This document shows, in pieces, positions 4,984 through 64,000 of a DNA stretch of 64,000 nt. The stretch lies in NCBI GenBank assembly GCA_038045385.1, contig JBBSYE010000001.1, positions 42,165 through 106,164 on the forward strand, read 5' to 3'. The stretch comes from Nanobdellota archaeon (GTDB lineage: Archaea; Nanobdellota; Nanobdellia; Pacearchaeales; GW2011-AR1). Under the pieces are notes generated by a model that did not search any database, was not told the origin of the DNA, and saw only the letters and a list, made by a program, of their open reading frames with translations. Numbering within the stretch: position 1 is the first letter of the stretch; the number at the start of each line of letters is the position of its first letter. A program made the position numbers and the translations under genes.

Positions 4984-5241
4984 GTGTAGACGGGGAGTCT
5001 GCTCAAACAAACCGCCTGAGTTGATTCGCGCCTTTCTCGGCCATGCAACCCGGTAAGCACCGCGTTTCCTGTTTAGGGCTGCTCCGATCAAGGCCTGACC
5101 CGATTCACAAGAGCACGATCGAACCGGACATAGCGTCAACGTCCAGTACGAGACGCAAACGACAAGTTCTCACGCGCTCCTTTAAGCCTGCCTAAAGCCC
5201 GTTTGCAAATAGCGGAGGGCTACCCCGCCGGCTCGTCTACA
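4984..5241 (-). ncRNA. Signal recognition particle RNA (7S/SRP RNA)
   Basis: An approximately 260-nt GC-rich island in an AT-rich genome. The minus-strand transcript contains GGUCAGGCCUUGAUCGGAGCAGCC, matching the conserved helix-8 GGUCAGG...AGCAGCC core. The 5' end GUAGACG... pairs with the 3' end ...CGUCUAC as a terminal helix. Exact ends are uncertain. Confidence 0.7.
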
Positions 5242-11144: not shown

Positions 11145-11275
11145 GCGGGGGTAGCAAAGCGGTTAAATGCGCAAGACTTAAGACGTCCCGCGCTCGTTAG
11201 AGCGCGTGAAGCATTAGATTTCGGAAGAAATCTTGTGGCTTAGTGCCTTCGGAGGTTCGAATCCTCCCTCCCGCA
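11145..11275 (+). tRNA. tRNA-Leu (anticodon UAA) containing a ~47-nt intron in the anticodon loop
   Basis: GCGGGGG acceptor stem, 3-bp D-stem, and anticodon stem CAAGA...TCTTG. The stem is interrupted at 11184..11230 after the loop CTTAAGA. A long variable arm (GGCTTAGTGCC) indicates a class II tRNA. T-arm GGAGGTTCGAATCCTCC, discriminator A. Confidence 0.8.
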
Positions 11276-52382: not shown

Positions 52383-53948
52383 TTACATATAAAACATATA
52401 ATGCGTTTGAAGTGGAACGTTCCTATCTGCTTCGGATAAAATCTCTCCTACTTTCTTTGAAAATGCCAAAGTTATAGGCATTTCTGTACAAAACGCAGTA
52501 GTATTCCAATTTAATTTAGTTAAACCTAATATCTCTTCACAAATCTCTTTTATTTCTGAATCTCCATCATGATTAATTAAAACTGGTTGAGGAATACTAT
52601 TTCCTGGATAAGTTCTTAATCTTGGGATATACCCTATAGTGTACAATAGATGCTCTCCTTTATCCAGATTGATAAGCGTACCTCTTAACACAGGGTAGGA
52701 TCCTTTTCTCATAAATCTAATCCCCTTCCTTTTAGACAATGTAACGTAATCTCTTTTTGCAGTACCTATCGCTTTAGAGAATCCATTTTTTTCAGCTTTG
52801 GTAAATAAAGTAGATTTATGGACAACAACTCTCACTGGATCTCTTCCGGCCCTATTCTTATATCTTTCAATGGATTGAACTAATAACTCCTCCGCCTGTT
52901 TCTCAGATAAATGGGGTTCTTTGGTTTCTTCATCGACATAAACTTCAGTTCCTCTTAAAACCAACCCTTGTCCATCATGTGTAAAAACTTGAGCCATGGA
53001 AGTCTGAATATCCTGATTTGATGTTAATTTATCTCTATAAAAAGAAATTCCAACATAACAAGTATCGTCTCTAAGTTTTGCTAGCCTCCAAGGTTTTCCG
53101 TTTGCCTTGTAAAATAAAGCTGTAGAAAAATTCCAAGCAAAGGAAGATGGGTCCTGTTTTCTTTTACCAGCAGGATCATAATTTAGTATAACGTCTATAG
53201 TAGATTCTCTTAAGATTTGTATAGGCTTTGTTGGACTGATGCTCATCACTTTTCCTTTTAAAGCATTTCTAAAATCATAACCTTTTGGAATTTGCTGACT
53301 AGGAGATTTCATAGTTACACCCCACTCAGTTAGAAACATTTGGCTTTTCTTCTTTAGGTCATCTATCTTTTTCCCCAATTCAGACGTCTTGACTATTTTA
53401 GCTCCTCTCGTTCTAAGAGATATCCCGCAATATTCCTCTATCTCTTTCGGTAGACAGCAGATAATAACTTCCGGAGGATTATCATCCGCCATTATGTTTT
53501 TTATCTTAGACAGATATAATTCTACTGCTGAACCTATTCTTTCATTTACATCTATAATGTTTTTTATTTTTTCAATTTCATATTGTTGAACGGTCTCTTG
53601 CCAATTCTTAGCAATGTCAATAGAACAATTAAACTTTGTATCTTTAGACATGCCTGGATAAGGAGGATATAGCCACTTATTTGATTCTTTGTTTTCAATT
53701 GGTTTTTTTATCAGGTCAAGTATTTTTTTAACCTTCTCTATGGTGTTACTGTCTCCGATTATGCCTACAGAGACTTTGCTTAAAGAAACGCTTTCTGTTT
53801 CGTATCTATAGGGGCCATGGTATTTTAGTCCTAGTCGAGGGTCTTTTTCTTCCTTAAAGTCTCCAAAGACAAGATTACTCTCGTTTAGAAATTCTGAATC
53901 AAAAATCATTTTCTTCCTCCATGTGTTCGATTTCTTCACTATCTTCAA
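52383..53948 (-). CDS. Short prokaryotic Argonaute-like protein (MID-PIWI, predicted catalytically inactive)
   Basis: 521 aa. The block ALFYKANGKPWRLAKL..TCYVGISFYRDK matches the Ago KxGGxxW to GxDVxH segment, with the catalytic Asp replaced by Ser. VRVVVHKSTLF matches the RDG block, with RDG replaced by HKS. HLLYTIGYIPRLRTYPGNSIPQPVLINHD matches the PIWI C-terminal ...R.TRSVSIPAPAYYAH motif. Confidence 0.6.
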   Translation of the reverse strand: MKIVKKSNTWRKKMIFDSEFLNESNLVFGDFKEEKDPRLGLKYHGPYRYETESVSLSKVSVGIIGDSNTIEKVKKILDLIKKPIENKESNKWLYPPYPGMSKDTKFNCSIDIAKNWQETVQQYEIEKIKNIIDVNERIGSAVELYLSKIKNIMADDNPPEVIICCLPKEIEEYCGISLRTRGAKIVKTSELGKKIDDLKKKSQMFLTEWGVTMKSPSQQIPKGYDFRNALKGKVMSISPTKPIQILRESTIDVILNYDPAGKRKQDPSSFAWNFSTALFYKANGKPWRLAKLRDDTCYVGISFYRDKLTSNQDIQTSMAQVFTHDGQGLVLRGTEVYVDEETKEPHLSEKQAEELLVQSIERYKNRAGRDPVRVVVHKSTLFTKAEKNGFSKAIGTAKRDYVTLSKRKGIRFMRKGSYPVLRGTLINLDKGEHLLYTIGYIPRLRTYPGNSIPQPVLINHDGDSEIKEICEEILGLTKLNWNTTAFCTEMPITLAFSKKVGEILSEADRNVPLQTHYMFYM

Positions 53949-55353
53949 TTTCTAATCTAAACTCTGAAGATGGAATATCAAAAAGGATTCCTTTTGAAAC
54001 TTTAGTAGACGAAGGTTTCGAACTTATTTCTAAATAGTCTTGTACTTTGATATTTTCTCCCTCACCAAGTTGGTGTATCCAAAATAAAAGAGTATTAAGA
54101 TACATACTGTTGTATCTATTATAGGAAAGACGAGTTATTACTGCTCCCTCCTCCGGCCCAGAAACAACTCTTTTTCCATCATCAGTTATAACAAAAGTTG
54201 GGTTTATTTTAAGAAATAATCTCTTATTCAATATAATTGTACTCGCTTGAAAAGCCATATGACAATAAATATATCTTTTCAGTTGCTCAGCCCACATTCT
54301 ACTCGCCACTTGCCTATCTGATCGAACATATCTCCCAGCCCAACTTTCTTTTCTTTTTTCAGAATTAGATGGATAATAAAGTTTGTAGCCATCACGATGA
54401 TAATATAAACCTCTATTTATTGCTAAAAAAGTTATTTCTTTGTTAAGTAGTTCAATAATAATCTTTGATTTCTCTGGATCATCTAGCCAAGATTCAACTA
54501 GTTCTCTCGAAGCCGAGCTTGTAACTAATCCCGAATAAGGATTTTTACTATCTTGTAGATTCTCAAAAGTAACTATTTTTTTATTCCAACTTTTAAACTT
54601 TTTATAGAAGTCTGGTCTTATACTTCTCTCATACAAGTATTGTTTAATTGAGACATCATCTTCAAACTTACCCTCTCCTAGAAAAACGTATTTAGGTAAT
54701 TTTATAATCTCAAATAAATTACTAAAAATTTCTTCTTCTACATCATCAGGTTCTCCGCTCAAGACAGAAGTTTGATAATCAGTCTTTTCTATTCTCTTCT
54801 TAATTATTTCAATTTCGTAAGAAGTTGGATGTATGCTTTGAGTTCCCCTCCTATAAAATAATTCTCCTTTCTTGAATACTGATTTTGGTTTCCCATCTTT
54901 GTCATATTCACCATCTTTCTTTGGAACAAGCAGAGAACGAGAAGGCGGTATGTAAATATAAGCAAACCTCTTAGGAATGTTTCCTATCTCAATAATTTCT
55001 TCATGATAAAGTATCTCTAAAGGCTCATCAACATATGAATTGAATTTTTCTTGAAGAGTTGCTTGATCTACCTTATAATCTTCTCGGAGGCCTACAGGGA
55101 TAGGTTTTCGTTTTTCATCTTTCCAACCTATTAAAATCCAACCACCTCCATAATTACTGAAAGCTAGTATATCTTTTACTATCTCGGGAAAGTCAGATCC
55201 TTTTGAAACATCTATTACCAGCTTATAGTCAAGGTAAGGATTTTCAGATTTTTCTTTAAGATAATCTAATGCGTATTGCCCAAGTGGCGAAGACTCAACA
55301 TTGTCTATAACCACTTTCATTACAGGTTTTAAATTTACCTCTTGTTTTTCCAT
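53899..55353 (-). CDS. AlbA_2 (Schlafen-core-like) domain protein, putative pAgo-associated effector/partner
   Basis: 484 aa. N-terminus YLDYKLVIDVSKGSDFPEIVKDILAFSNYGGGWILIGWKDE matches the AlbA_2/Schlafen-box consensus (ExK...AFANT.GG.I.IGV.D). The gene overlaps the PIWI gene by 50 nt. Confidence 0.6.
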   Translation of the reverse strand: MEKQEVNLKPVMKVVIDNVESSPLGQYALDYLKEKSENPYLDYKLVIDVSKGSDFPEIVKDILAFSNYGGGWILIGWKDEKRKPIPVGLREDYKVDQATLQEKFNSYVDEPLEILYHEEIIEIGNIPKRFAYIYIPPSRSLLVPKKDGEYDKDGKPKSVFKKGELFYRRGTQSIHPTSYEIEIIKKRIEKTDYQTSVLSGEPDDVEEEIFSNLFEIIKLPKYVFLGEGKFEDDVSIKQYLYERSIRPDFYKKFKSWNKKIVTFENLQDSKNPYSGLVTSSASRELVESWLDDPEKSKIIIELLNKEITFLAINRGLYYHRDGYKLYYPSNSEKRKESWAGRYVRSDRQVASRMWAEQLKRYIYCHMAFQASTIILNKRLFLKINPTFVITDDGKRVVSGPEEGAVITRLSYNRYNSMYLNTLLFWIHQLGEGENIKVQDYLEISSKPSSTKVSKGILFDIPSSEFRLEIEDSEEIEHMEEENDF

Positions 55354-55402
55354 AGAAAGAGGATTAATTGGCTATGTATAAACTTTTCTAGCCTAGAGAA
55401 TA

Positions 55403-57304
55403 TTATTCAATTATATCTAGAAAATGAGATCTCTCGTTCTCTCTTCCCCAACCATTCTCATCGTAGTGTGTGATAACAAGAGAATTCTTTGCTCTGGAAA
55501 TAGCTACGTAAAATAATCTTAGTTCACTATCTCTCTTGTTGGTATCTAGCTCTTTAGTATAGAACGGTAAAGTTTTCTCATTACAGGAAATAAGAAAAAC
55601 GTGTTCCCATTCAAGTCCCTTCGCACTATGTATTGTACTGAGAATAACTTTGTCTTTTGTTTTGTCTTTTTTGTCTAGTTCAATCAGGCTATCCAAAAAA
55701 TCTTGTATCTGGTCCTTAGCTGGACCATATTCCTTAAAGAGTTCCTTTAAAACGTCAATGTTTTCTATTTTATCTTGTAATCTTCCAGGCTCCTCTCGAT
55801 ACTTATTTACAATTCTGGTCCTATAACCAAAGTCCTTTAGAAAAGATGAGATTGGATCTTCTTTAAAATTAATAATTAAGTCTTTTAATTTTTTAACTTG
55901 GTTTATTTTATCCTGGCTTAATTTAACTTCATCATAAAAGTCTAATGCCTCTATTAATGAACAGCCCCTTGTTAACGAGATATCTTCAAACTTTTTGACA
56001 GTTGTCTTACCTAAACCATCAAGTAAGGTAAAAATTCTTTCAAAATCAATAATAGAATGCGGATTGACCTTTAATTTTAGGAAAGCAGTAATGTCTTTTA
56101 TTTCCTCTCTTTCAAAGAAGTCTTTAGACTTAGCTAAATGACAAGGAATTTTATTCTTTTTCAACTCACGTTCAACGTCTTTTCCTATTCTATTGGTTCT
56201 AAACAAAACTGCTATTTGGTCTTTAGGAGTTTCCTTACTAATTAATTCTTTAATCTGATAGGCTATAAATTCAAGTTCTTCATCAAAATTAGAGAAAGAT
56301 TCAATTGCAACGTTCCCAGCATGGCTCTTAGTGCAGTTTAGTTGTTTGTCTATCTTAAACTTCATAGAGCCTATAACTTTATTGACAGAATCAATAATAT
56401 TCTTGCCAGAACGATAATTTTCTTTTAAGAAAATAGTCTTCTCGTTTTCGCTGAAATCAAAAACGAGTTGATTTGAAGATCCCCTCCATTCATAGATATT
56501 CTGACAATCGTCTCCAATAAGACATAGGTTGTTGTTCTTCAATAGATTAAGAATATTTTTTTGAACAACATTGAGATCCTGAGCTTCATCCACCATAATA
56601 GCCTTAAATCTTTTTGCATACTTTTCCCTTATTTCTTTATTCTTATCAAATAATTTATGAGTTAAGATAAGAATATCATCAAAGTCTATTAAATTTCTTT
56701 TTTTCAGTTCTTCCTCATATTTTTTATATACTTTGTTCACATATTTTCTTAAGTTTGGGTCTACTTTTATAATATCATCATCGAGAGCTTCTTCGACAAC
56801 ACCACCTTGAATATTGTCATCCAGGCTTGATTTTTCTGATAAGTTTTCAGCAAGAATACCTCGACTTTTGAATTTTCCAATCCAACTAACAAAATATTTC
56901 AGATTGTCTCCCTTGTAGTCTATATTCTCTCTAGTCATTATTTGTTTGACTATCTTCTTTTTATCAGCTTCATCATCGATTAAGGTAAATCCCTCGGCTA
57001 AGGAAGTAAATTTAACATTATCTCTTAGTATTCTAAGAAATAGTGAATGCATAGTCCCAATGTAAGGAGGTTCAGATCCCGTTCTTTCAACAATTTTCTT
57101 TACCATATCTTTAGCTGCCTTATTAGTGAATGTAGTCATCATTATTTCTCTCGGCTTGTATCCATGATTTTCAATCATATTTACATATCTCTCTACAATC
57201 GTTGTGGTTTTTCCGGTACCTGCACTTGCCATAATTAGGAGATTTCCGCTTACAAAATTAACTGCCTCTAATTGGTCTATATTGAGCTTTTTTACCTGAT
57301 TCAT
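55403..57304 (-). CDS. UvrD/Rep-like SF1 DNA helicase
   Basis: 633 aa. LLIMASAGTGKTTTIVERY (Walker A), FTNKAAKDM, VDEAQD, and the C-terminal YVAISRAK motif VI. Confidence 0.8.
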   Translation of the reverse strand: MNQVKKLNIDQLEAVNFVSGNLLIMASAGTGKTTTIVERYVNMIENHGYKPREIMMTTFTNKAAKDMVKKIVERTGSEPPYIGTMHSLFLRILRDNVKFTSLAEGFTLIDDEADKKKIVKQIMTRENIDYKGDNLKYFVSWIGKFKSRGILAENLSEKSSLDDNIQGGVVEEALDDDIIKVDPNLRKYVNKVYKKYEEELKKRNLIDFDDILILTHKLFDKNKEIREKYAKRFKAIMVDEAQDLNVVQKNILNLLKNNNLCLIGDDCQNIYEWRGSSNQLVFDFSENEKTIFLKENYRSGKNIIDSVNKVIGSMKFKIDKQLNCTKSHAGNVAIESFSNFDEELEFIAYQIKELISKETPKDQIAVLFRTNRIGKDVERELKKNKIPCHLAKSKDFFEREEIKDITAFLKLKVNPHSIIDFERIFTLLDGLGKTTVKKFEDISLTRGCSLIEALDFYDEVKLSQDKINQVKKLKDLIINFKEDPISSFLKDFGYRTRIVNKYREEPGRLQDKIENIDVLKELFKEYGPAKDQIQDFLDSLIELDKKDKTKDKVILSTIHSAKGLEWEHVFLISCNEKTLPFYTKELDTNKRDSELRLFYVAISRAKNSLVITHYDENGWGRENERSHFLDIIE

Positions 57305-57362
57305 ACTAGACTTTAGAGATTGTCTACTTTCTTAAGTTATTCTATCACTAATATTAAATCTC

Positions 57363-57638
57363 TTAATAATTGAACACAACTTGACTTTTTGAGAAAATAA
57401 CCCTGCTTCTTACCTTTACTTCTTTTCCGACTTTTGTCTTTGATATGAGGCCTAAATTTTCAAGCATCTTAACATAATCGGCCACTTTAGTGTAGGCTAG
57501 ATTCAGGTTAGACGCTAGCTCAGTAATACTGAGATCCTTATGTTGGGTGAGTTCAAGGACAGCGAATCGCATCATGTTTGACATGGCTTTTATTCTATCA
57601 TACACTTGAGGGTTCTTTAGGGTTGTTGAGGTTGTCAT
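57363..57638 (-). CDS. ArsR/winged-HTH family transcriptional regulator
   Basis: 91 aa. FAVLELTQHKDLSITELASNLNLAYTKVADYVKMLENLGLI is a wHTH motif. It is the first gene of the helicase-AlbA_2-PIWI operon. Confidence 0.6.
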   Translation of the reverse strand: MTTSTTLKNPQVYDRIKAMSNMMRFAVLELTQHKDLSITELASNLNLAYTKVADYVKMLENLGLISKTKVGKEVKVRSRVIFSKSQVVFNY

Positions 57639-57703: not shown

Positions 57704-59124
57704 ATGGAAACCTCTACCATCCTCTATCCTCAAATTTACGATTATGATAACCTTATTTTAGCCTGGCAAAACGCCAAAAGAGGAAAGACAAAGCGAAGAT
57801 ATGTAAAACGATTTCAAAGAGACCTTAGAGAAAACTTGATTAAATTACAGGAAGAGCTTACTCATCAGACCTATCAACCGTGTGAACTAAAAACATTCAC
57901 GTTAAGAGACCCTAAAACAAGGAAAATATCAAAATCAGCCTTTAGAGATAGAGTTGTTCATCATGCGCTTTGTAATATTATCGTTTATACCTTTCAGAAG
58001 GGATTCATCTATGACTCGCACGCAAATCAAATAGGGAAAGGAACGCTCAAAGCTTTAGAGCGATTTGATGTTTTCAAAAGAAAGGTATCTAAGAACAATA
58101 CAAGAGAGGCTTATGTGTTAAAAGCAGATATTAAGCACTATTTTGAAGAAATTGACCATCAAATCCTTATAGGAATATTACGGAAGAAGATTAAAGATGA
58201 AAAAATTATCTGGCTCATAGAAAGAATCTTGTCAGTTAACCATAGGATAAAGGGCATGCCTTTGGGAAATTTAACAAGTCAGTTCTTTGCGAACCTATAT
58301 CTTAACGAATTAGATGTTTTTGTCAAGCACAAATTAAAGGCTAAATACTACATAAGATATGTGGATGATTTTGTTATTTTGCATGAATCAAAGGAGCAAC
58401 TAGGTAAGTGGAAGCAAGAGATTAATACTTTTTTAGATGAACGTTTGAAAATAGAACTACATCCAAGCAAATCAAATGTTTTAAGACTGAATAGTGGTAT
58501 AAACTTCTTAGGTTTCAGAGTTTTTTCTATCATAAACTTATAAGAAAAAGCAATTTAAGGAATTTTGAACGGAAATTCAATAATCTCAAAATATTATTTG
58601 ATGAAGAACTAATCGGGAGAGAAAAAGTACTAGAAGCCTTAGAAGGATGGCTCGCTTATTGTTCTCACGCAAATACGTACAAGTACCGAAAGTATCTCAT
58701 TAGAAACTTCAATACATCGTTTTCTCATGGAAACAAGCTCTTAGTTCACAATAAAAAGAATTATGCCAATTACATTAAGAGAGTTAAAGAAAGTGAATTA
58801 CAATTTTCAGTTCAAAAGACATTATTTCATTATAAGAAAGGTCTCAGAATAAAAGAAATCTCGGTCAAAGAAGGAATAAAAGAAGCAACAGTCTGGGGAC
58901 ATTTGGCTAATTTAATAGAACATAAACAACTTTCAGTGTGGGAAATTCTTCCACATAATAAAATCCATGCAATTATAAGAAAAATATATCGTAGAAAAGA
59001 AAGATTGCGAGATATCAAAAAGAGATTGCATGATAAATCAATAACATACGATGAAATTGCATGCGTGATGGCTAATATTAAATCAAAAAAGAAGTGGAAG
59101 AATAAGAGTCCTGGAAACAAGTGA
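57704..59124 (+). pseudogene. Group II intron-like reverse transcriptase/maturase, interrupted by a frameshift in a T6 run (~58523..58528)
   Basis: RT motifs 0-7 are present (NLILAWQNAKRGK; PKTRKISKSAFRDRVVHHAL; SHANQIGKG; YVLKADIKHYFEEIDH; MPLGNLTSQFFANLYL; RYVDDFVIL; LHPSKS; INFLGFRV). With T6 to T7 the frame continues ...FRVFFYHKLIRKSNL...EALEGWLAYCSHAN... (maturase X-like) to a stop at 59122..59124, about 472 aa. As sequenced the RT ORF stops at 58543. Confidence 0.65.
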
Positions 59125-59234
59125 GTTATTCCGAGCAAACGGCCATTGTCATTGTCAAGATTGTTCCTGCCGTTCGCATTCGACCTGTTCTCGAGCCTGT
59201 TGACAATCCACGCCCCAGAGCATAGCCCATTCAC
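59125..59234 (-). pseudogene. Fragment (~35 codons) of a paralog of gene 59964..60755
   Basis: 59131..59216 is about 80% identical to 60128..60213 at nucleotide level (DxDNGRLLGI vs DYDDGRLLGI). The fragment starts 7 nt after the RT stop. Confidence 0.5.
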
Positions 59235-59411
59235 TTATTACTCTTATCACCACCATTTCACGCATTAGGTGTTATGGCTGTATTTTATGACAATAAATTG
59301 CCACAGTGAACGAGCGTATAACCCAGCTTCTCATAGTTTCCCACGGTTGCCAGGACTTAGAATTTTAATAATAGGTGTATAAAAGGTTTATTGCAATATA
59401 TTAACTATTAT

Positions 59412-59939
59412 TCAATTGATAAAATCTAAGCTTGAATAAGTGTTTTTATTATCGCTATCGCACATGAGTAGTACTTTAGACTTCTTTTCTCCTCTTTTAA
59501 TTAAACACATAGCTCTATGATTTCCTAAAATAACTTCAAACAACTCCCCATATTTTCTAACGATTATTGGAATCTGAAATAATATTTCATCTACAACAGG
59601 ATATAATAAAGAAATTCTTTGAATAGATTCTTGACTATTCATTTTACTGGAATCTTTCAATTTTGTTCCTCTTTCTAAACCTCCATGAAAATCATCTAAA
59701 CATAACGAGTCTAAAGAAACTTCAATTAGTTGACAATACTTCTCGTTTAATCTGTCGAACCACATAAAGTCTCCCGAATTTAGTTTACTTCTAATCTGCT
59801 CTTTTGTAAGTGGAGAAACTCTCTTTTTTATATCTTTAATTTTCTTCTCAATTGAAGAATTTGATTTATTAGTAACGTGTTCTTGTTCATACAGTTTATC
59901 TATATAGAATAGTTTTTGTAGAATCTGTTTCTTATCCAT
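59412..59939 (-). CDS. Hypothetical protein
   Basis: 175-aa ORF. Confidence 0.4.
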   Translation of the reverse strand: MDKKQILQKLFYIDKLYEQEHVTNKSNSSIEKKIKDIKKRVSPLTKEQIRSKLNSGDFMWFDRLNEKYCQLIEVSLDSLCLDDFHGGLERGTKLKDSSKMNSQESIQRISLLYPVVDEILFQIPIIVRKYGELFEVILGNHRAMCLIKRGEKKSKVLLMCDSDNKNTYSSLDFIN

Positions 59940-59963
59940 TTATCAAACAGATAGAAGACTAAT

Positions 59964-60755
59964 TTAAAGTTTCTTTCTTAATGCAGCAAATGGTTTTAAT
60001 ACGTCAGGGTTTAGAACTCCTTCTAATCCTTTCATTGCACCGTCAAAAGCCTGTAAATCTGCCATAGTATATGCTTTTATGTTTGAAGCACCTTTTCCGG
60101 GCGCACTAAGCGCCTCCGGCGCTATACCGAGCAAACGGCCATCGTCATAGTCAAGATCGCCCCCGCCGAGCGCATACGACCCGTACTCGAGCCAGTCGAC
60201 AACCCACGCCCTCATCTTTGGAGCGTCGCCTGCTGAATCTGGGTAAACTCCCATTGCAGTATCATAACTAAATCTTTCCTTGCCTTCCGCAAAGATAAAA
60301 TCAGTATAATCATTAAGTAATGTCTGATCTCTAGCTAACACTTTCCATACAGGATGAGCTTTAACATCTTCTCTTGAAAGTGGAGTTTCTGTCTTTCCAA
60401 GTTTTCCTTTCTTGAATTCTTCTCCTTGTAAAGCATTGTAAACATCATCTGTTAAAGTTAAAGCACCATTACTTCTTGGACTTTCAGGAGTCATATCTCT
60501 TAAAGTTTGAGAATCAAGAACAATCTTTACTCTCCCATCTGGGTGATACACAACGGCATCTCCAGTATCGAAATAATTATCCATATAAGAAGTTTTAACG
60601 GCCTTATCAGAATTTCTAACATCAAGTCGTCTTTGCATCAATTGAGAAACATTCATAGGAACTCTGCCATCCGCTATCAATTTCGGCATTTGCTTTACAT
60701 TCTGGCCGTAAAATTCCTGATATACTTCTCTTGTTGCATTTAGCTTTAATCCCAT
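59964..60755 (-). CDS. Hypothetical protein (263 aa), GC-richer than surroundings
   Basis: Intact ORF with locally elevated GC (for example about 60.10-60.25 kb). It has a partial paralogous fragment at 59125..59234. Confidence 0.5.
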   Translation of the reverse strand: MGLKLNATREVYQEFYGQNVKQMPKLIADGRVPMNVSQLMQRRLDVRNSDKAVKTSYMDNYFDTGDAVVYHPDGRVKIVLDSQTLRDMTPESPRSNGALTLTDDVYNALQGEEFKKGKLGKTETPLSREDVKAHPVWKVLARDQTLLNDYTDFIFAEGKERFSYDTAMGVYPDSAGDAPKMRAWVVDWLEYGSYALGGGDLDYDDGRLLGIAPEALSAPGKGASNIKAYTMADLQAFDGAMKGLEGVLNPDVLKPFAALRKKL

Positions 60756-60810
60756 AGTAATTCTATAAAACTCCTATTTATAAACTTTTCTATTAGTTAC
60801 TACTTAGTAA

Positions 60811-63087
60811 TTACAATACCTTAATTTTATTTAACACTTCTTCTGTATTACCAGTATGTGCTAAAAAGAAATGTAGCTTACCCTTACCTAGCTCAGCCCA
60901 CTTATTGGCAATCTCAACTTTATAGCCAGTATCTTCGTTGCTTATTCTATCTCCGCCCTTCCACTCGATAGCTAGAAAGTTGCCTCTACTCGTTATTGCT
61001 ATAAAATCAGGATAGAATTTATTTGGTCTCCATCCTTGTATATAAAACGGATCTTTCTTTTCTTTATTTCTTACCCAAAATTTGATATTTGGCAAGGCTT
61101 CTGAATCTAACCTTGAAATAAAGGCATGTTCTTCTTTGTTTAACTTTCCAATATCTTCATAAAAATTTCTCTTAAACTTTTCTCCGACTCTATCAGCAAT
61201 CATAACTTTATCTGAGAATTTCTCAAACTCTTTTATTTTAATCTTCTTATCTTTTATAGATTTGTCAAATTGTTTCTTTGCATACTCAATAAGTCTGTCT
61301 CGGATAATCTCATCTAATTTATCTTTAAAAATAAAACGATTAACTGATAGTTCCGATAAACTATATTTCTTAAGCTGATATTCAACTGCCTTGTCCAAAA
61401 ATTTAATCTTATCTCCTTGGTCAATCATGACAAACTTAAGTTTTCCGTCTAACCATGAAATAAGTTCTTTTTCAGAGAAATTCTTATCTAAATAGGTAAT
61501 ATTGAGAGTTGTCTGCCTTTCTTTTACCCATTCGTTTTCTTTATGTATATCTAAAAGAAGTCTGCCATCATTGTCATAATGAATCTTAAAATCAAATTGA
61601 GTGTCTTGCTTGGAAAGTTCAAAATCTTCCCCTATAAGGTCTGCAAACTCTAAAGGCTCATCTTCAAAAGCCATGATCGGGGCAAATAAGTCGTCTTTTA
61701 CAGTTTTTCCTACTTCGAACTCATATTTTGGATTTTTCTCTTGTGCATTGATTAAGTCATATCTGCTAAAGCCGTTTGTTTCTAATCCATCTATAATCTC
61801 ATTTGCTACTTCGTTGAAATTCTTACCTGTTGCAAATATATAGGAATTGTTTAGTTCAGGATTCTTTTTTTCTTTGGCATTAGGAAGCCTTACAATTCTA
61901 CCTATAATCTGCTCAACAGATATTTTAGATCCGATATTTGCTACTGATATTAAAATGTAGGCAAACGAGCAATCCCATCCTTCAGCCAAAGCATTAACTG
62001 TGATGATATAGTTTATTGGACATTTCTTACTGAATAAGTCTACTCCTTCTAACTGGTTTTGAGAAGAAGTTTTTATTGCAATTTCTTCGTCAGGAATCTT
62101 ATGTTCTTTCATTAAGAAATCTTTTATATGTTGAACTGTAACAACAGTAGTCTTATCACTTTCCTTTTCTTGTTGTGCTTGTAGGAGTGCAATAGGTCTA
62201 ATATATTCGCCCTTCTCTTTCTTCGCAATATCAGACAATTCTTTTCTCTTAAGTATTCCTCTAGTTACTGCTTGTTGCCATTGGGAAACGCTCTCTAAAA
62301 CTATTGGAATTTTAACCATCTTCTCTTCTTTTAATTCAACAGAGCTAGTCTTTACCAAAACATTACTTTCTTTTCTTGGAGTTGCAGTATATTCTATGAT
62401 AAAACAGGGGTTAAGGTCTTTCAAAAATTGAATAGATAAATCTGTTTTTGTTCTATGTCCTTCATCTATTACAATTAAAGGATTACTAATTCTTATGACA
62501 TTAGCCAAGGAATTAATCACAGTACCCGACTCGTCTTTCTCTAGTTTGCTATCCTCTGCTAGATTTTCAAAATGACTTATGAGTTCACCGTTTTCTTGAT
62601 AAACTTTATATTTATTCTGTAATTTCTTGTCTTTTCTAAAGGAATCAAGACTAGATACGATAATACAAAGATTATTTTCTACATCTTGCTTTCTTATTCT
62701 TAGAGATTCTTCATTAGAGAAAATTCTTATTTTATTATCAAAATATTCATCTAAGATTTGTCTATGAAAGTCTTTTTTATCATTAAGCTTTCTTAATGTT
62801 TGAGATTTAATCGCTTCAGAAGGAACAAACCATATTATTATTCCTCTTTCTAACTTATTTTCTAAGGAAATATCAATTATTTCTTTAATTGAATGACAAG
62901 CAACAAGAGTCTTACCGCCACCTGTTGGGATCTTAATACATACAAATGGTACATTCCCAAAGAACTCTTCATTATATTTCTCTGCCGCTTTTGAGATAAA
63001 GGCATGCTTTGCTCCAAACTTATTTAATTCCTTTAGATAATCTTTTAACTCTTGAATTGCTTTTTCTTGATATTTCTTTAGTTCCAT
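60811..63087 (-). CDS. res: Type III restriction enzyme Res-like subunit (SF2 helicase + C-terminal PD-(D/E)xK nuclease)
   Basis: 758 aa. Motif I KIPTGGGKTLVA, motif II IVIDEGHR, motif VI QIIGRIVRL. The C-terminus YPDFIAITSRGNFLAIEWKG carries a D...E.K nuclease motif. The start overlaps the mod stop (ATGA). Confidence 0.7.
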   Translation of the reverse strand: MELKKYQEKAIQELKDYLKELNKFGAKHAFISKAAEKYNEEFFGNVPFVCIKIPTGGGKTLVACHSIKEIIDISLENKLERGIIIWFVPSEAIKSQTLRKLNDKKDFHRQILDEYFDNKIRIFSNEESLRIRKQDVENNLCIIVSSLDSFRKDKKLQNKYKVYQENGELISHFENLAEDSKLEKDESGTVINSLANVIRISNPLIVIDEGHRTKTDLSIQFLKDLNPCFIIEYTATPRKESNVLVKTSSVELKEEKMVKIPIVLESVSQWQQAVTRGILKRKELSDIAKKEKGEYIRPIALLQAQQEKESDKTTVVTVQHIKDFLMKEHKIPDEEIAIKTSSQNQLEGVDLFSKKCPINYIITVNALAEGWDCSFAYILISVANIGSKISVEQIIGRIVRLPNAKEKKNPELNNSYIFATGKNFNEVANEIIDGLETNGFSRYDLINAQEKNPKYEFEVGKTVKDDLFAPIMAFEDEPLEFADLIGEDFELSKQDTQFDFKIHYDNDGRLLLDIHKENEWVKERQTTLNITYLDKNFSEKELISWLDGKLKFVMIDQGDKIKFLDKAVEYQLKKYSLSELSVNRFIFKDKLDEIIRDRLIEYAKKQFDKSIKDKKIKIKEFEKFSDKVMIADRVGEKFKRNFYEDIGKLNKEEHAFISRLDSEALPNIKFWVRNKEKKDPFYIQGWRPNKFYPDFIAITSRGNFLAIEWKGGDRISNEDTGYKVEIANKWAELGKGKLHFFLAHTGNTEEVLNKIKVL

Positions 63088-64000
63088 TAGTAAATTCTCA
63101 CCTCATAAGGAATTTGTTTAAACTGAATTTTATGTTTCTCTAAGTTTTCTTCATCAAGAAGACATTTATCTGCGTAAATAACTCGGTTATTATCATCTTT
63201 CTTTATACTCTTTAGAAAAGATTTATTGAGTATATTTTTACCCCTTTCCTTAAAGATAAGATAATAATCTGTTTCGTTAAGGCTTCCAATTAGACTGTTC
63301 TTTATTTGCTTTTTATCTAAGTTCGTTTGTGTTTCCGTAAAATAAATATAATTGGCAAGTTGTTCAAATGTGCATTCTTCATCTATCTTTCCCTCTTCAT
63401 TGAATAATGGTTTATCTAATTCGCAGAATTCAAAACCTCCATTATGGTCTTCCTTCTCAATAGCTCTTTTTATTCTTTCGACAGTTACTTTTTTAGCAAC
63501 GTGATCTTCCATTTCTATCAGAATAAACCTCCTATCTCCTTTGTCTTTTTTATTTAATTGTAGAACTGCGTGTCCTGTTGTTCCTGTCCCGGCAAAAGAG
63601 TCTAATATAATAGATTCTTTATGATCATGAGTAATTATTGCTATTAGATATCTGATAAGACTCGATGGTTTTGGATAGTTGAATACTTTTTCTCCAAAGA
63701 TTTCCTTTAACTCTCGATTTCCATCTAAGGTAAAACCCTGCTCAGAAAAAATACTTCTAGGTTTAATCCTTCTTTCTTCTCCACTTTCGTGCAGATATAT
63801 TTTAGTAAATACTTGCCATTCACCTGATTTCTTATTTTTTACAAAATCTATTTTGCCTTCTTTCTTTGCCTGTAAAAATGTTTCTTTGCTATACCTCCAA
63901 ATATGCGGTTTAATGCTAATTTTTGATCCATCGGGGGCATCTATTTCATATTGTAAATTAGGTCGATTTTCATCTATTCCCGGCTGATAAAGATTATATC
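63087..64000 (-). CDS. mod: N6/N4 DNA methyltransferase (type III Mod-like, beta class), 5'-truncated by window end
   Basis: The frame is open from 64000 down to the stop at 63087. It contains LDSFAGTGTTGHAVLQLNKKDKGDRRFILIEMED, which is motif I (DPFxGSGTT-like) near the C-terminus as expected for the N6_N4_Mtase family. The DPPY motif is expected upstream, outside the window. The track ORF 63087..63512 is its internal-Met tail. Confidence 0.7.
   Translation of the reverse strand, partial: YNLYQPGIDENRPNLQYEIDAPDGSKISIKPHIWRYSKETFLQAKKEGKIDFVKNKKSGEWQVFTKIYLHESGEERRIKPRSIFSEQGFTLDGNRELKEIFGEKVFNYPKPSSLIRYLIAIITHDHKESIILDSFAGTGTTGHAVLQLNKKDKGDRRFILIEMEDHVAKKVTVERIKRAIEKEDHNGGFEFCELDKPLFNEEGKIDEECTFEQLANYIYFTETQTNLDKKQIKNSLIGSLNETDYYLIFKERGKNILNKSFLKSIKKDDNNRVIYADKCLLDEENLEKHKIQFKQIPYEVRIY

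Follow-up and report, generated by a model that had tools for sequence, protein, structure and literature searches.

On the minus strand of the 64,000-nucleotide stretch of contig JBBSYE010000001.1 that was analysed here (the window), from a Nanobdellota archaeon, two overlapping genes form a short-Argonaute locus. The downstream gene encodes, as judged from its sequence and from a structural model, a short prokaryotic Argonaute (pAgo) that is composed of MID and PIWI domains only, without N or PAZ. The upstream gene encodes a Schlafen-APAZ (SLFN-APAZ) partner.

52383..53909, minus strand: short pAgo gene, 508 amino acids (translation, PADLOC, PDB matches, identity to P0001, GGAGG)
53079..53909, minus strand: MID domain, residues 1-277 (alignment to the NbaAgo MID, residues 1-250 (PMC12774872), and AlphaFold2 model)
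52386..53078, minus strand: PIWI domain, residues 278-508, RNase H fold without catalytic residues (hhalign, AlphaFold2 model, Foldseek)
53899..55353, minus strand: partner gene, Schlafen(AlbA_2)-APAZ, 484 amino acids, its stop overlapping the pAgo start (Pfam, PADLOC, phmmer, Foldseek)

The open reading frame (ORF) 52383..53948 gives 521 residues from a TTG start at 53948. The likely start of the pAgo is the ATG at 53909 (M14 of the ORF), where the homologues begin as well. A GGAGG (53916-53920) lies 6 nucleotides upstream of this ATG, which overlaps the stop codon of the SLFN-APAZ gene (ATGATTTTTGA). The resulting 508-residue protein is 100% identical to the NCBI gene model P0001 from a Nanoarchaeota metagenome-assembled genome (MAG; DPANN). 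pAgo residue numbers refer to this protein; 13 must be added for the 521-residue ORF.

The PADLOC class-I (short) pAgo model pAgo_I matches at 1.9e-153. Among solved chains, the nearest by sequence is the SPARDA Ago (9jsb_A, 2e-69; also 9qbp and 9qbl), with further matches to the SPARHA Ago (9om4_B, 9e-65), the SPARTA Agos (about 1e-63 to 1e-57) and the SPARSA Ago (5.5e-29). The protein aligns end to end with the SPARTA, SPARDA and SPARHA Agos, and its length fits the roughly 450-520 residues of short pAgos. An AlphaFold2 model was calculated with 33 homologues (pLDDT 79.7, pTM 0.81). Foldseek searches with this model retrieved Ago chains of SPARDA, SPARHA, SPARTA and SPARSA with TM-scores of 0.7-0.88. 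Pfam gave no match to the pAgo and NCBIfam only a weak C-terminal one. More than 1000 homologues are found in databases, the closest ones in DPANN archaea, and no relatives were found in the IMG/VR viral contigs.

Guide pocket and catalytic positions of the pAgo

An earlier note, made from the DNA sequence, had described a degenerate PIWI tetrad and a retained MID pocket of the Y/K type. All the peptides it quoted were found in the translation of 52383..53948(-). Those of the MID domain are located as follows.

53250-53282, minus strand: GYDFRNALKGK
53256..53270, minus strand: RK motif, R214-N-A-L-K218 (alignment to NbaAgo R183/K187)
53211-53225, minus strand: PIQIL
53106..53219, minus strand: remaining pocket residues Q231, Q252, N260 and K268 (alignment to NbaAgo Q198, Q224, N232 and K240)
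53088-53114, minus strand: FYKANGKPW

The pocket was mapped to that of NbaAgo using phmmer. R214, K218, Q231, Q252, N260 and K268 correspond to NbaAgo R183, K187, Q198, Q224, N232 and K240, respectively, and D212 and F213 to N181 and F182. The alignment reproduces the residue numbers of the NbaAgo structure paper, showing that the register is right. In the NbaAgo structure, R183, K187 and K240 are in contact with the 5'-phosphate of the guide. Q224 and N232 serve to read nucleotide 2, and N181 and F182 assist in holding base 1; the triple substitution R183A/K187A/K240A significantly impairs NbaSPARDA activity (PMC12774872). All 33 homologues have K218, Q231, N260 and K268 in common; at position 214, 27 of them carry R and the other 6 carry H. 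RK and HK pockets are the types found in short pAgos, which have a conserved 5'-phosphate pocket (Ryazansky et al., PMC6299218). The predicted MID 5'-phosphate pocket is thus intact and of the RK type (R214-K218-Q231-N260-K268). The earlier note was therefore right that the pocket is retained, and its three sequence blocks are the correct ones, but the type has to be revised. The tyrosine taken for its Y/K motif, Y211, is matched by P180 in NbaAgo, and the family has Y, F, L or M at this position.

In the PIWI domain, the positions in question are the following.

53037-53057, minus strand: YVGISFY
53043..53045, minus strand: S289, position of the first catalytic Asp (TtAgo D478, human AGO2 D597; G-x-D motif, strand beta-1)
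52908..52934, minus strand: loop D326-L334, place of the glutamate-finger/sensor loop (alignment to the AcaSPARHA sensor loop)
52809-52829, minus strand: VVVHKST
52812..52814, minus strand: S366, position of the second catalytic Asp (TtAgo D546; hhalign, 92%)
52716..52733, minus strand: KRKGIR, landmark strand like the eukaryotic 'KRHH', not part of the tetrad (hhalign, human AGO2 comparison)
52455..52457, minus strand: K485, fourth tetrad position (TtAgo D660, human AGO2 H807; hhalign)

TtAgo was used as the active reference. Its sequence was verified to be 100% identical over 685 residues to the Argonaute gene on pTT27 (NC_005838.1), and D478, E512, D546 and D660, the established catalytic tetrad, are present at the expected positions. 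When a 33-member family profile was compared with TtAgo in hhalign, the C-terminal half of PIWI aligned with a probability of 92%. RVVVHKST pairs with TtAgo RVLLLRDG, which places S366 on D546, and PITLAFSK pairs with PAPLHLAD, which places K485 on D660. At motif level, the G-x-D register places S289 on the first Asp (VG-I-S here, VG-F-D in TtAgo, LG-A-D in human AGO2), near the end of the predicted strand 283-291 (beta-1 of the AlphaFold2 model). With a relaxed threshold, hhalign puts TtAgo D478 two residues off S289, with zero confidence; S289 was kept, in line with the conserved G-x-D register and with strand beta-1 of the model. Column 289 is Ser in all 33 family members. Column 366 contains S, T, K, E or A, never D, and column 485 is highly variable.

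The glutamate finger is placed at loop level only, in loop 326-334 (DEETKEPHL), where E331 is Glu in 27 of the 33 family members. Residues 328-334 of this loop align with the sensor loop 290-296 of AcaSPARHA (PMC12738770). In SPARTA, the sensor loop was described as the counterpart of the catalytic loop, repurposed for probing the duplex of guide and target (PMC10474274).

The earlier note had also counted KRKGIR, at the 'KRHH' region, among the tetrad substitutions. This assignment does not hold. KRKGIR resembles the human AGO2 strand VVQKRHHTR and is paired by hhalign with TtAgo RKSGGGR, so that it serves as a landmark strand only. The tetrad of human AGO2 is D597/E637/D669/H807 (sequence checked against 4ola), the 'KRHH' block not being among these residues, and the true fourth position is K485 in PITLAFSK. 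Human AGO2 landmarks were compared at motif level only, because the hhalign alignment of the family profile to the human AGO2 PIWI domain (sequence verified against 4ola) had a probability of 0.2% and was not usable.

On the other hand, YVGISFY as a degenerate first-Asp site and VVVHKST as a degenerate RDG block are both borne out, as is the prediction of a sensor rather than a slicer, with Ser instead of Asp at the first and third tetrad positions. The alignment places no intact DEDX residues, S289, S366 and K485 standing at TtAgo D478, D546 and D660, and the pocket residues align with the NbaAgo guide contacts. Overall, the observation of the earlier note is confirmed and its interpretation partly supported. 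The predicted protein cannot cut targets by the canonical slicer mechanism, because both Asp positions are Ser.

One may ask whether the pAgo is itself a nuclease with a non-canonical active site. Lysine is among the residues accepted at the fourth tetrad position, and the conserved E331 lies in the finger-loop region. However, Ser is found at both Asp positions, the second of which varies freely, and K485 is not conserved. Moreover, slicer activity was shown for no short pAgo (PMC9097488). We consider the probability of such an activity to be negligible. The loss of DEDX is among the traits by which the whole clade of short pAgos is defined (PMC9097488, PMC6299218). Because every short pAgo shares it, the degenerate tetrad is ordinary and nothing special to this gene. 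The informative part of the locus is the SLFN-APAZ partner.

The Schlafen-APAZ partner

The domain and motifs of the partner on which the interpretation depends are listed here.

55222..55245, minus strand: E37-NPYL-D42-Y-K44, predicted Schlafen nuclease catalytic motif (conservation, CbCash alignment)
55141..55164, minus strand: AFSNYGGG, Schlafen box and glycine core (conservation; motif according to bioRxiv 10.64898/2026.05.29.728809)
53986..54768, minus strand: APAZ domain, residues 196-456 (PADLOC, Foldseek, phmmer)

Pfam SLFN_AlbA_2 matches residues 37-175 (2.1e-12) and the PADLOC APAZ models Aga_*-PNTD1-PNTD2 match residues 196-456 (2.7e-25). Matches to the PADLOC TIR/SIR2-APAZ models are confined to the APAZ part. 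A phmmer search matched the APAZ domain to the SPARHA partner 9om4_A (4.7e-11), of which only residues 122-359 were aligned. With the model of the whole partner (pLDDT 82.3), Foldseek revealed APAZ matches only, first SPARHA APAZ 9om4_A (6.6e-15), then SPARDA and SPARTA APAZ chains; no Schlafen match was returned. The Pfam scan of the partner identified no ATPase domain, no PF13749 and no DUF4365 (DREN), HNH, TIR or SIR2 match. Some homologues are named "ATP-binding protein" or "divergent AAA domain" in databases, names that presumably stem from older annotation of the AlbA_2 domain.

Sequence alignment of 35 partner homologues, 38-82% identical, shows that E37, D42, K44, A64, N67, G69 and G71 are invariant; the segments A64-F-S-N67 and Y-G-G-G71 show no or hardly any variation. 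E-x4-(D/E)-x-K, the Schlafen box and the glycine core are motifs of active Schlafen nucleases (bioRxiv 10.64898/2026.05.29.728809). When a sequence profile of the N-terminal domain was compared with the PDB, the best match was CbCash (9ylu_A, E = 6.5e-4), followed by weaker matches to mammalian SLFN14, rat SLFN13 (5yd0, deposited as "Schlafen 8") and SLFN11. E37, D42 and K44 align with E17, D22 and K24 of CbCash, the Mg2+ catalytic centre. Cells with the CbCash E17Q/D22N mutant show neither the growth defect nor RNA fragmentation, and in vitro, tRNA is no longer cleaved once the catalytic centre is mutated (PMC13462974). The partner therefore carries an intact Schlafen nuclease site, E-x4-D-x-K, predicted to be catalytic.

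Schlafen/AlbA_2 has also been listed as a DNA-binding domain (PMC6299218), and the domain could merely bind or sequester nucleic acid, with no enzymatic effector in the system. The invariance of E37, D42 and K44 in homologues as distant as these, and their alignment with validated catalytic residues of CbCash, make this very improbable.

The conservation of the pair was studied in 80 related pAgo loci from GTDB species genomes. SLFN-APAZ is found directly upstream of the pAgo in 35 of them. These loci are mostly archaeal, from DPANN, Methanoperedens, Bathyarchaeia, Nitrososphaeria and Thermoplasmata, with a few from bacterial MAGs. Next to more distant pAgos (up to 38% identity), the APAZ partners have other N-terminal domains, or no partner was detected. 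Clustering of all other ORFs in the 35 paired loci revealed no further conserved neighbour. In four of the 35 loci, three from Thorarchaeota and one from an uncultured archaeon, SLFN, APAZ and pAgo lie in a single stop-free frame of roughly 950-980 codons.

L023, 1694-4594: fused frame
L033, 6144-9086: fused frame
L044, 6546-9494: fused frame
L048, 6654-9512: fused frame

These natural fusions support a physical complex and resemble the SIR2-APAZ-pAgo fusions of clade S1A. As a whole, the family is spread in archaea over DPANN, Nitrososphaeria, Bathyarchaeia, Methanoperedens and Thorarchaeota.

The full-length 484-residue SLFN-APAZ protein is absent among the matches listed from a 5.8-billion-protein collection, in which a 287-residue fragment (P0123, 100% identity) and the pAgo (P0001) are present. 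The gene may be split or missed in public annotation.

Proposed mechanism

From these sequences and by analogy with characterised systems, the locus is probably a two-gene short-Argonaute defence module, in which an inactive, guide-binding pAgo would be the sensor and a target-activated Schlafen nuclease the effector. With its tetrad lost (S289, S366, K485) but its RK-type pocket kept, the pAgo would bind a small guide and detect complementary targets while leaving them uncut. Guides would be 5'-phosphorylated and probably RNA, as in SPARDA, SPARHA and SPARTA, and may begin with 5'-A(U), as in SPARDA and SPARHA, since D212, F213, Q252 and N260 stand where the base-reading residues are found. 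By analogy with SPARDA, SPARHA and SPARTA, a heterodimer with the pAgo would be formed through the APAZ domain. Once loaded, this heterodimer may pair with complementary invader nucleic acid and oligomerise via the pAgo, placing the single-lobe Schlafen domains in the dimeric arrangement needed for activity. Target binding leads to tetramers of SPARTA and to filaments of SPARDA and SPARHA (PMC12774872, PMC12738770), and CbCash filaments align parallel Schlafen dimers (PMC13462974). In RzAgo, where a Schlafen domain is fused to an inactive long-B Ago, tRNA is cleaved only after guide-dependent binding of a DNA target; two Schlafen domains must pair, and the dimers rebuild the two-lobe architecture (bioRxiv 10.64898/2026.05.29.728809).

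In the present system, paired Schlafen domains may cleave host RNA. tRNA would be the most likely substrate, because both characterised prokaryotic Schlafens, CbCash and RzAgo, cleave tRNA. Translation would then stop and the infection or plasmid invasion would be aborted. We thus tentatively suggest, at somewhat less than even chances, that the output is translation shut-off by target-induced pairing of Schlafen tRNases, without a GHKL ATPase, and not NAD+ depletion or DNA degradation.

Several points weigh against this interpretation. The placement of the first Asp on S289 is a motif-level alignment, in a region where the hhalign confidence is nil. The Schlafen domain bears only a weak resemblance to solved Schlafens, CbCash being the best match. 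Mammalian SLFN11 also cuts single-stranded DNA, and the nearest pAgo relatives, SPARDA and SPARHA, use DNases; the substrate could therefore be DNA. According to the authors of the RzAgo preprint, their own Schlafen domains are only distantly related to those of the SLFN-APAZ type (bioRxiv 10.64898/2026.05.29.728809). Tetramerisation of RzAgo needs a GHKL ATPase; since no ATPase domain was detected here with Pfam, the route of activation must differ. Finally, no experimental study of the SLFN-APAZ/short-pAgo class was found in the literature.

The question of the substrate leads to an alternative in which the sensor is unchanged and the Schlafen domain is a collateral DNase that degrades invader and host DNA, like the DREN of SPARDA and the HNH of SPARHA. 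Some Schlafens cut single-stranded DNA, which would fit such an activity, as would the proximity of the pAgo to the Agos of SPARDA and SPARHA, whose effectors are DNases (PMC12774872, PMC12738770). However, the prokaryotic Schlafens for which biochemical data were found, CbCash and RzAgo, cleave tRNA, and their catalytic motif is like the one found here. A DNase output is therefore considered unlikely.

If the Schlafen domain is a target-activated tRNase, it would represent a third short-pAgo output, beside NADase and DNase. Argonaute and Schlafen immunity would be linked in archaea, and the system might be turned into a programmable RNase reporter, much like the diagnostics built on SPARTA and SPARDA. 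To our knowledge, Argonaute-based abortive infection has hardly been studied in archaea. The four natural fusions and the 35-member alignment supply constructs and mutation targets (E37, D42, K44, R214 and K218).

Genomic context and comparison with known systems

A 49-nucleotide gap precedes the SLFN-APAZ gene. The features found in and beyond it are as follows.

55377..55382, minus strand: TTTATA box, about 26 nucleotides upstream of the SLFN-APAZ ATG (promoter-like motif)
55403-57638, minus strand: UvrD/PcrA-like superfamily 1 helicase of 633 amino acids (55403..57304) and winged helix-turn-helix (wHTH) protein of 91 amino acids
57704-58543, plus strand: reverse transcriptase of a diversity-generating retroelement (DGR)
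59127-59215: DGR template repeat
59217-59354, minus strand: Rfam RT-16 RNA (70 bits), adjoining the template repeat
60123-60211: DGR variable repeat, in the C-terminus of ORF 59964-60755(-)
60811-63512: type III restriction ResIII-type helicase (758 amino acids) and unannotated 141-residue ORF

Within the gap, the motif TAGAAAAGTTTATA, which resembles a B recognition element and TATA box, is found at 55377-55390. It recurs at 60779-60792, about 26 nucleotides upstream of the start of the DGR target gene. The SLFN-APAZ/pAgo pair likely has its own archaeal promoter and a leaderless transcript, and the recurrence of the motif suggests leaderless transcripts and a common promoter type for SLFN-APAZ and the DGR target gene.

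The UvrD/PcrA-like helicase and the wHTH protein might be parts of the system, for instance by unwinding for guide generation or target access. The helicase is encoded on the same strand as SLFN-APAZ, only 49 nucleotides away, it has a GajB-like match in PADLOC (1e-89), and UvrD-type helicases are enriched in pAgo operons generally (PMC6299218). However, the TATA-like box in the gap suggests a transcript separate from that of the helicase. Any kind of UvrD helicase will match GajB models, and in NCBIfam, the PcrA/Rep/UvrD matches all stay below cutoff. Above all, a UvrD homologue lies within 8 kilobases (kb) of the pair in none of the 35 related SLFN-APAZ/pAgo loci. Participation of these two proteins is improbable, and the helicase was rejected as a third component because it is not conserved beside the pair.

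The DGR beside the pAgo module (57704-60755) is complete, and all 15 mismatches between template and variable repeats fall at template adenines. The reverse transcriptase ORF ends at 279 residues, with a plausible C-terminal continuation (EALEGWLAYCSHANTYKYRKYL) in another frame at 58480-58830. This break could be a frameshift, a sequencing error or the sign of a decaying gene. Together, the ResIII helicase, the DGR and the pAgo pair look like a defence island. A comparable context recurs in another DPANN lineage, at Micrarchaeota locus L002 (1-14656, JAJZAJ010000002.1). There, the SLFN-APAZ/pAgo pair is preceded by an IS110 transposase and a split DGR-type reverse transcriptase, and followed by an N6/N4 DNA methylase and a ResIII enzyme.

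Elsewhere in the window, a tRNA match of 131 nucleotides is found at 11145-11275; from its length, it presumably contains an intron. The signal recognition particle RNA at 5007-5236 just reaches the bacterial large-SRP gathering score (60.3 vs 60). The GC skew is negative in 30 of 32 two-kb bins over the 64 kb, the cumulative skew falling steadily. In the inspected 46-64 kb stretch, nearly all genes are on the minus strand.

Ryazansky et al. (2018) reported Schlafen/AlbA_2 among the domains of pAgo operons, one orthogroup joining it with SIR2 and APAZ (PMC6299218), and a cluster of Schlafens associated with short Argonautes is listed in the Cash paper (PMC13462974). A search for a named or characterised Schlafen-APAZ system in the literature returned nothing beyond one figure legend. 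The locus thus belongs to a class catalogued in the surveys of three papers, one of 2018 and two of 2026, and, as far as the literature search shows, experimentally uncharacterised, of which it is a clean, compact example.

SPARDA (NbaSPARDA, 9jsb/9vx1; XauSPARDA, 9qbl/9qcc) gives the top pAgo match by sequence as well as by structure (TM-scores 0.81/0.85). Its MID pocket is likewise of the RK type, the six residues R, K, Q, Q, N and K pairing one to one with ours, and it also lacks DEDX and has a separate APAZ partner gene upstream. Its effector is a PD-(D/E)XK DREN (DUF4365) nuclease, whereas the present one has the Schlafen/AlbA_2 fold; in addition, our host is a DPANN archaeon and the identity between the pAgos is only 26-31%. 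SPARHA (AcaSPARHA, 9om4) gives the top APAZ match, in Foldseek and in phmmer, and a PIWI match of 195 bits. The C-terminal ...YM end is shared and the sensor loops can be aligned. Its effector is an HNH domain instead of a Schlafen domain, and target-induced filaments activate this DNase.

Cash (CbCash, 9ylu) is the closest solved Schlafen relative, with the catalytic E, D and K aligned. It is activated by filament formation and cleaves tRNA. Its sensor, in contrast, is not an Argonaute but the Csx15 cA4-binding domain of type III CRISPR (PMC13462974). With SPARTA and SPARSA, the locus shares the two-part architecture and the inactive PIWI domain. In both of these systems, target binding triggers oligomerisation, but their effectors are TIR or SIR2 NADases, and the SPARSA pAgo is much more distant.

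The best functional analogy is provided by the SLFN-pAgo of Runella zeae, RzAgo, which also combines an inactive Argonaute sensor with a single-lobe Schlafen domain bearing E-x4-(D/E)-x-K and the Schlafen box. RzAgo is one polypeptide of about 1100 residues, of the long-B clade, with PAZ and a GHKL ATPase (PF13749) that drives tetramerisation, whereas the present system has two proteins, its Argonaute is short, an APAZ domain is present, and no ATPase was detected. In RzAgo, RNA-guided DNA sensing licenses tRNA cleavage.

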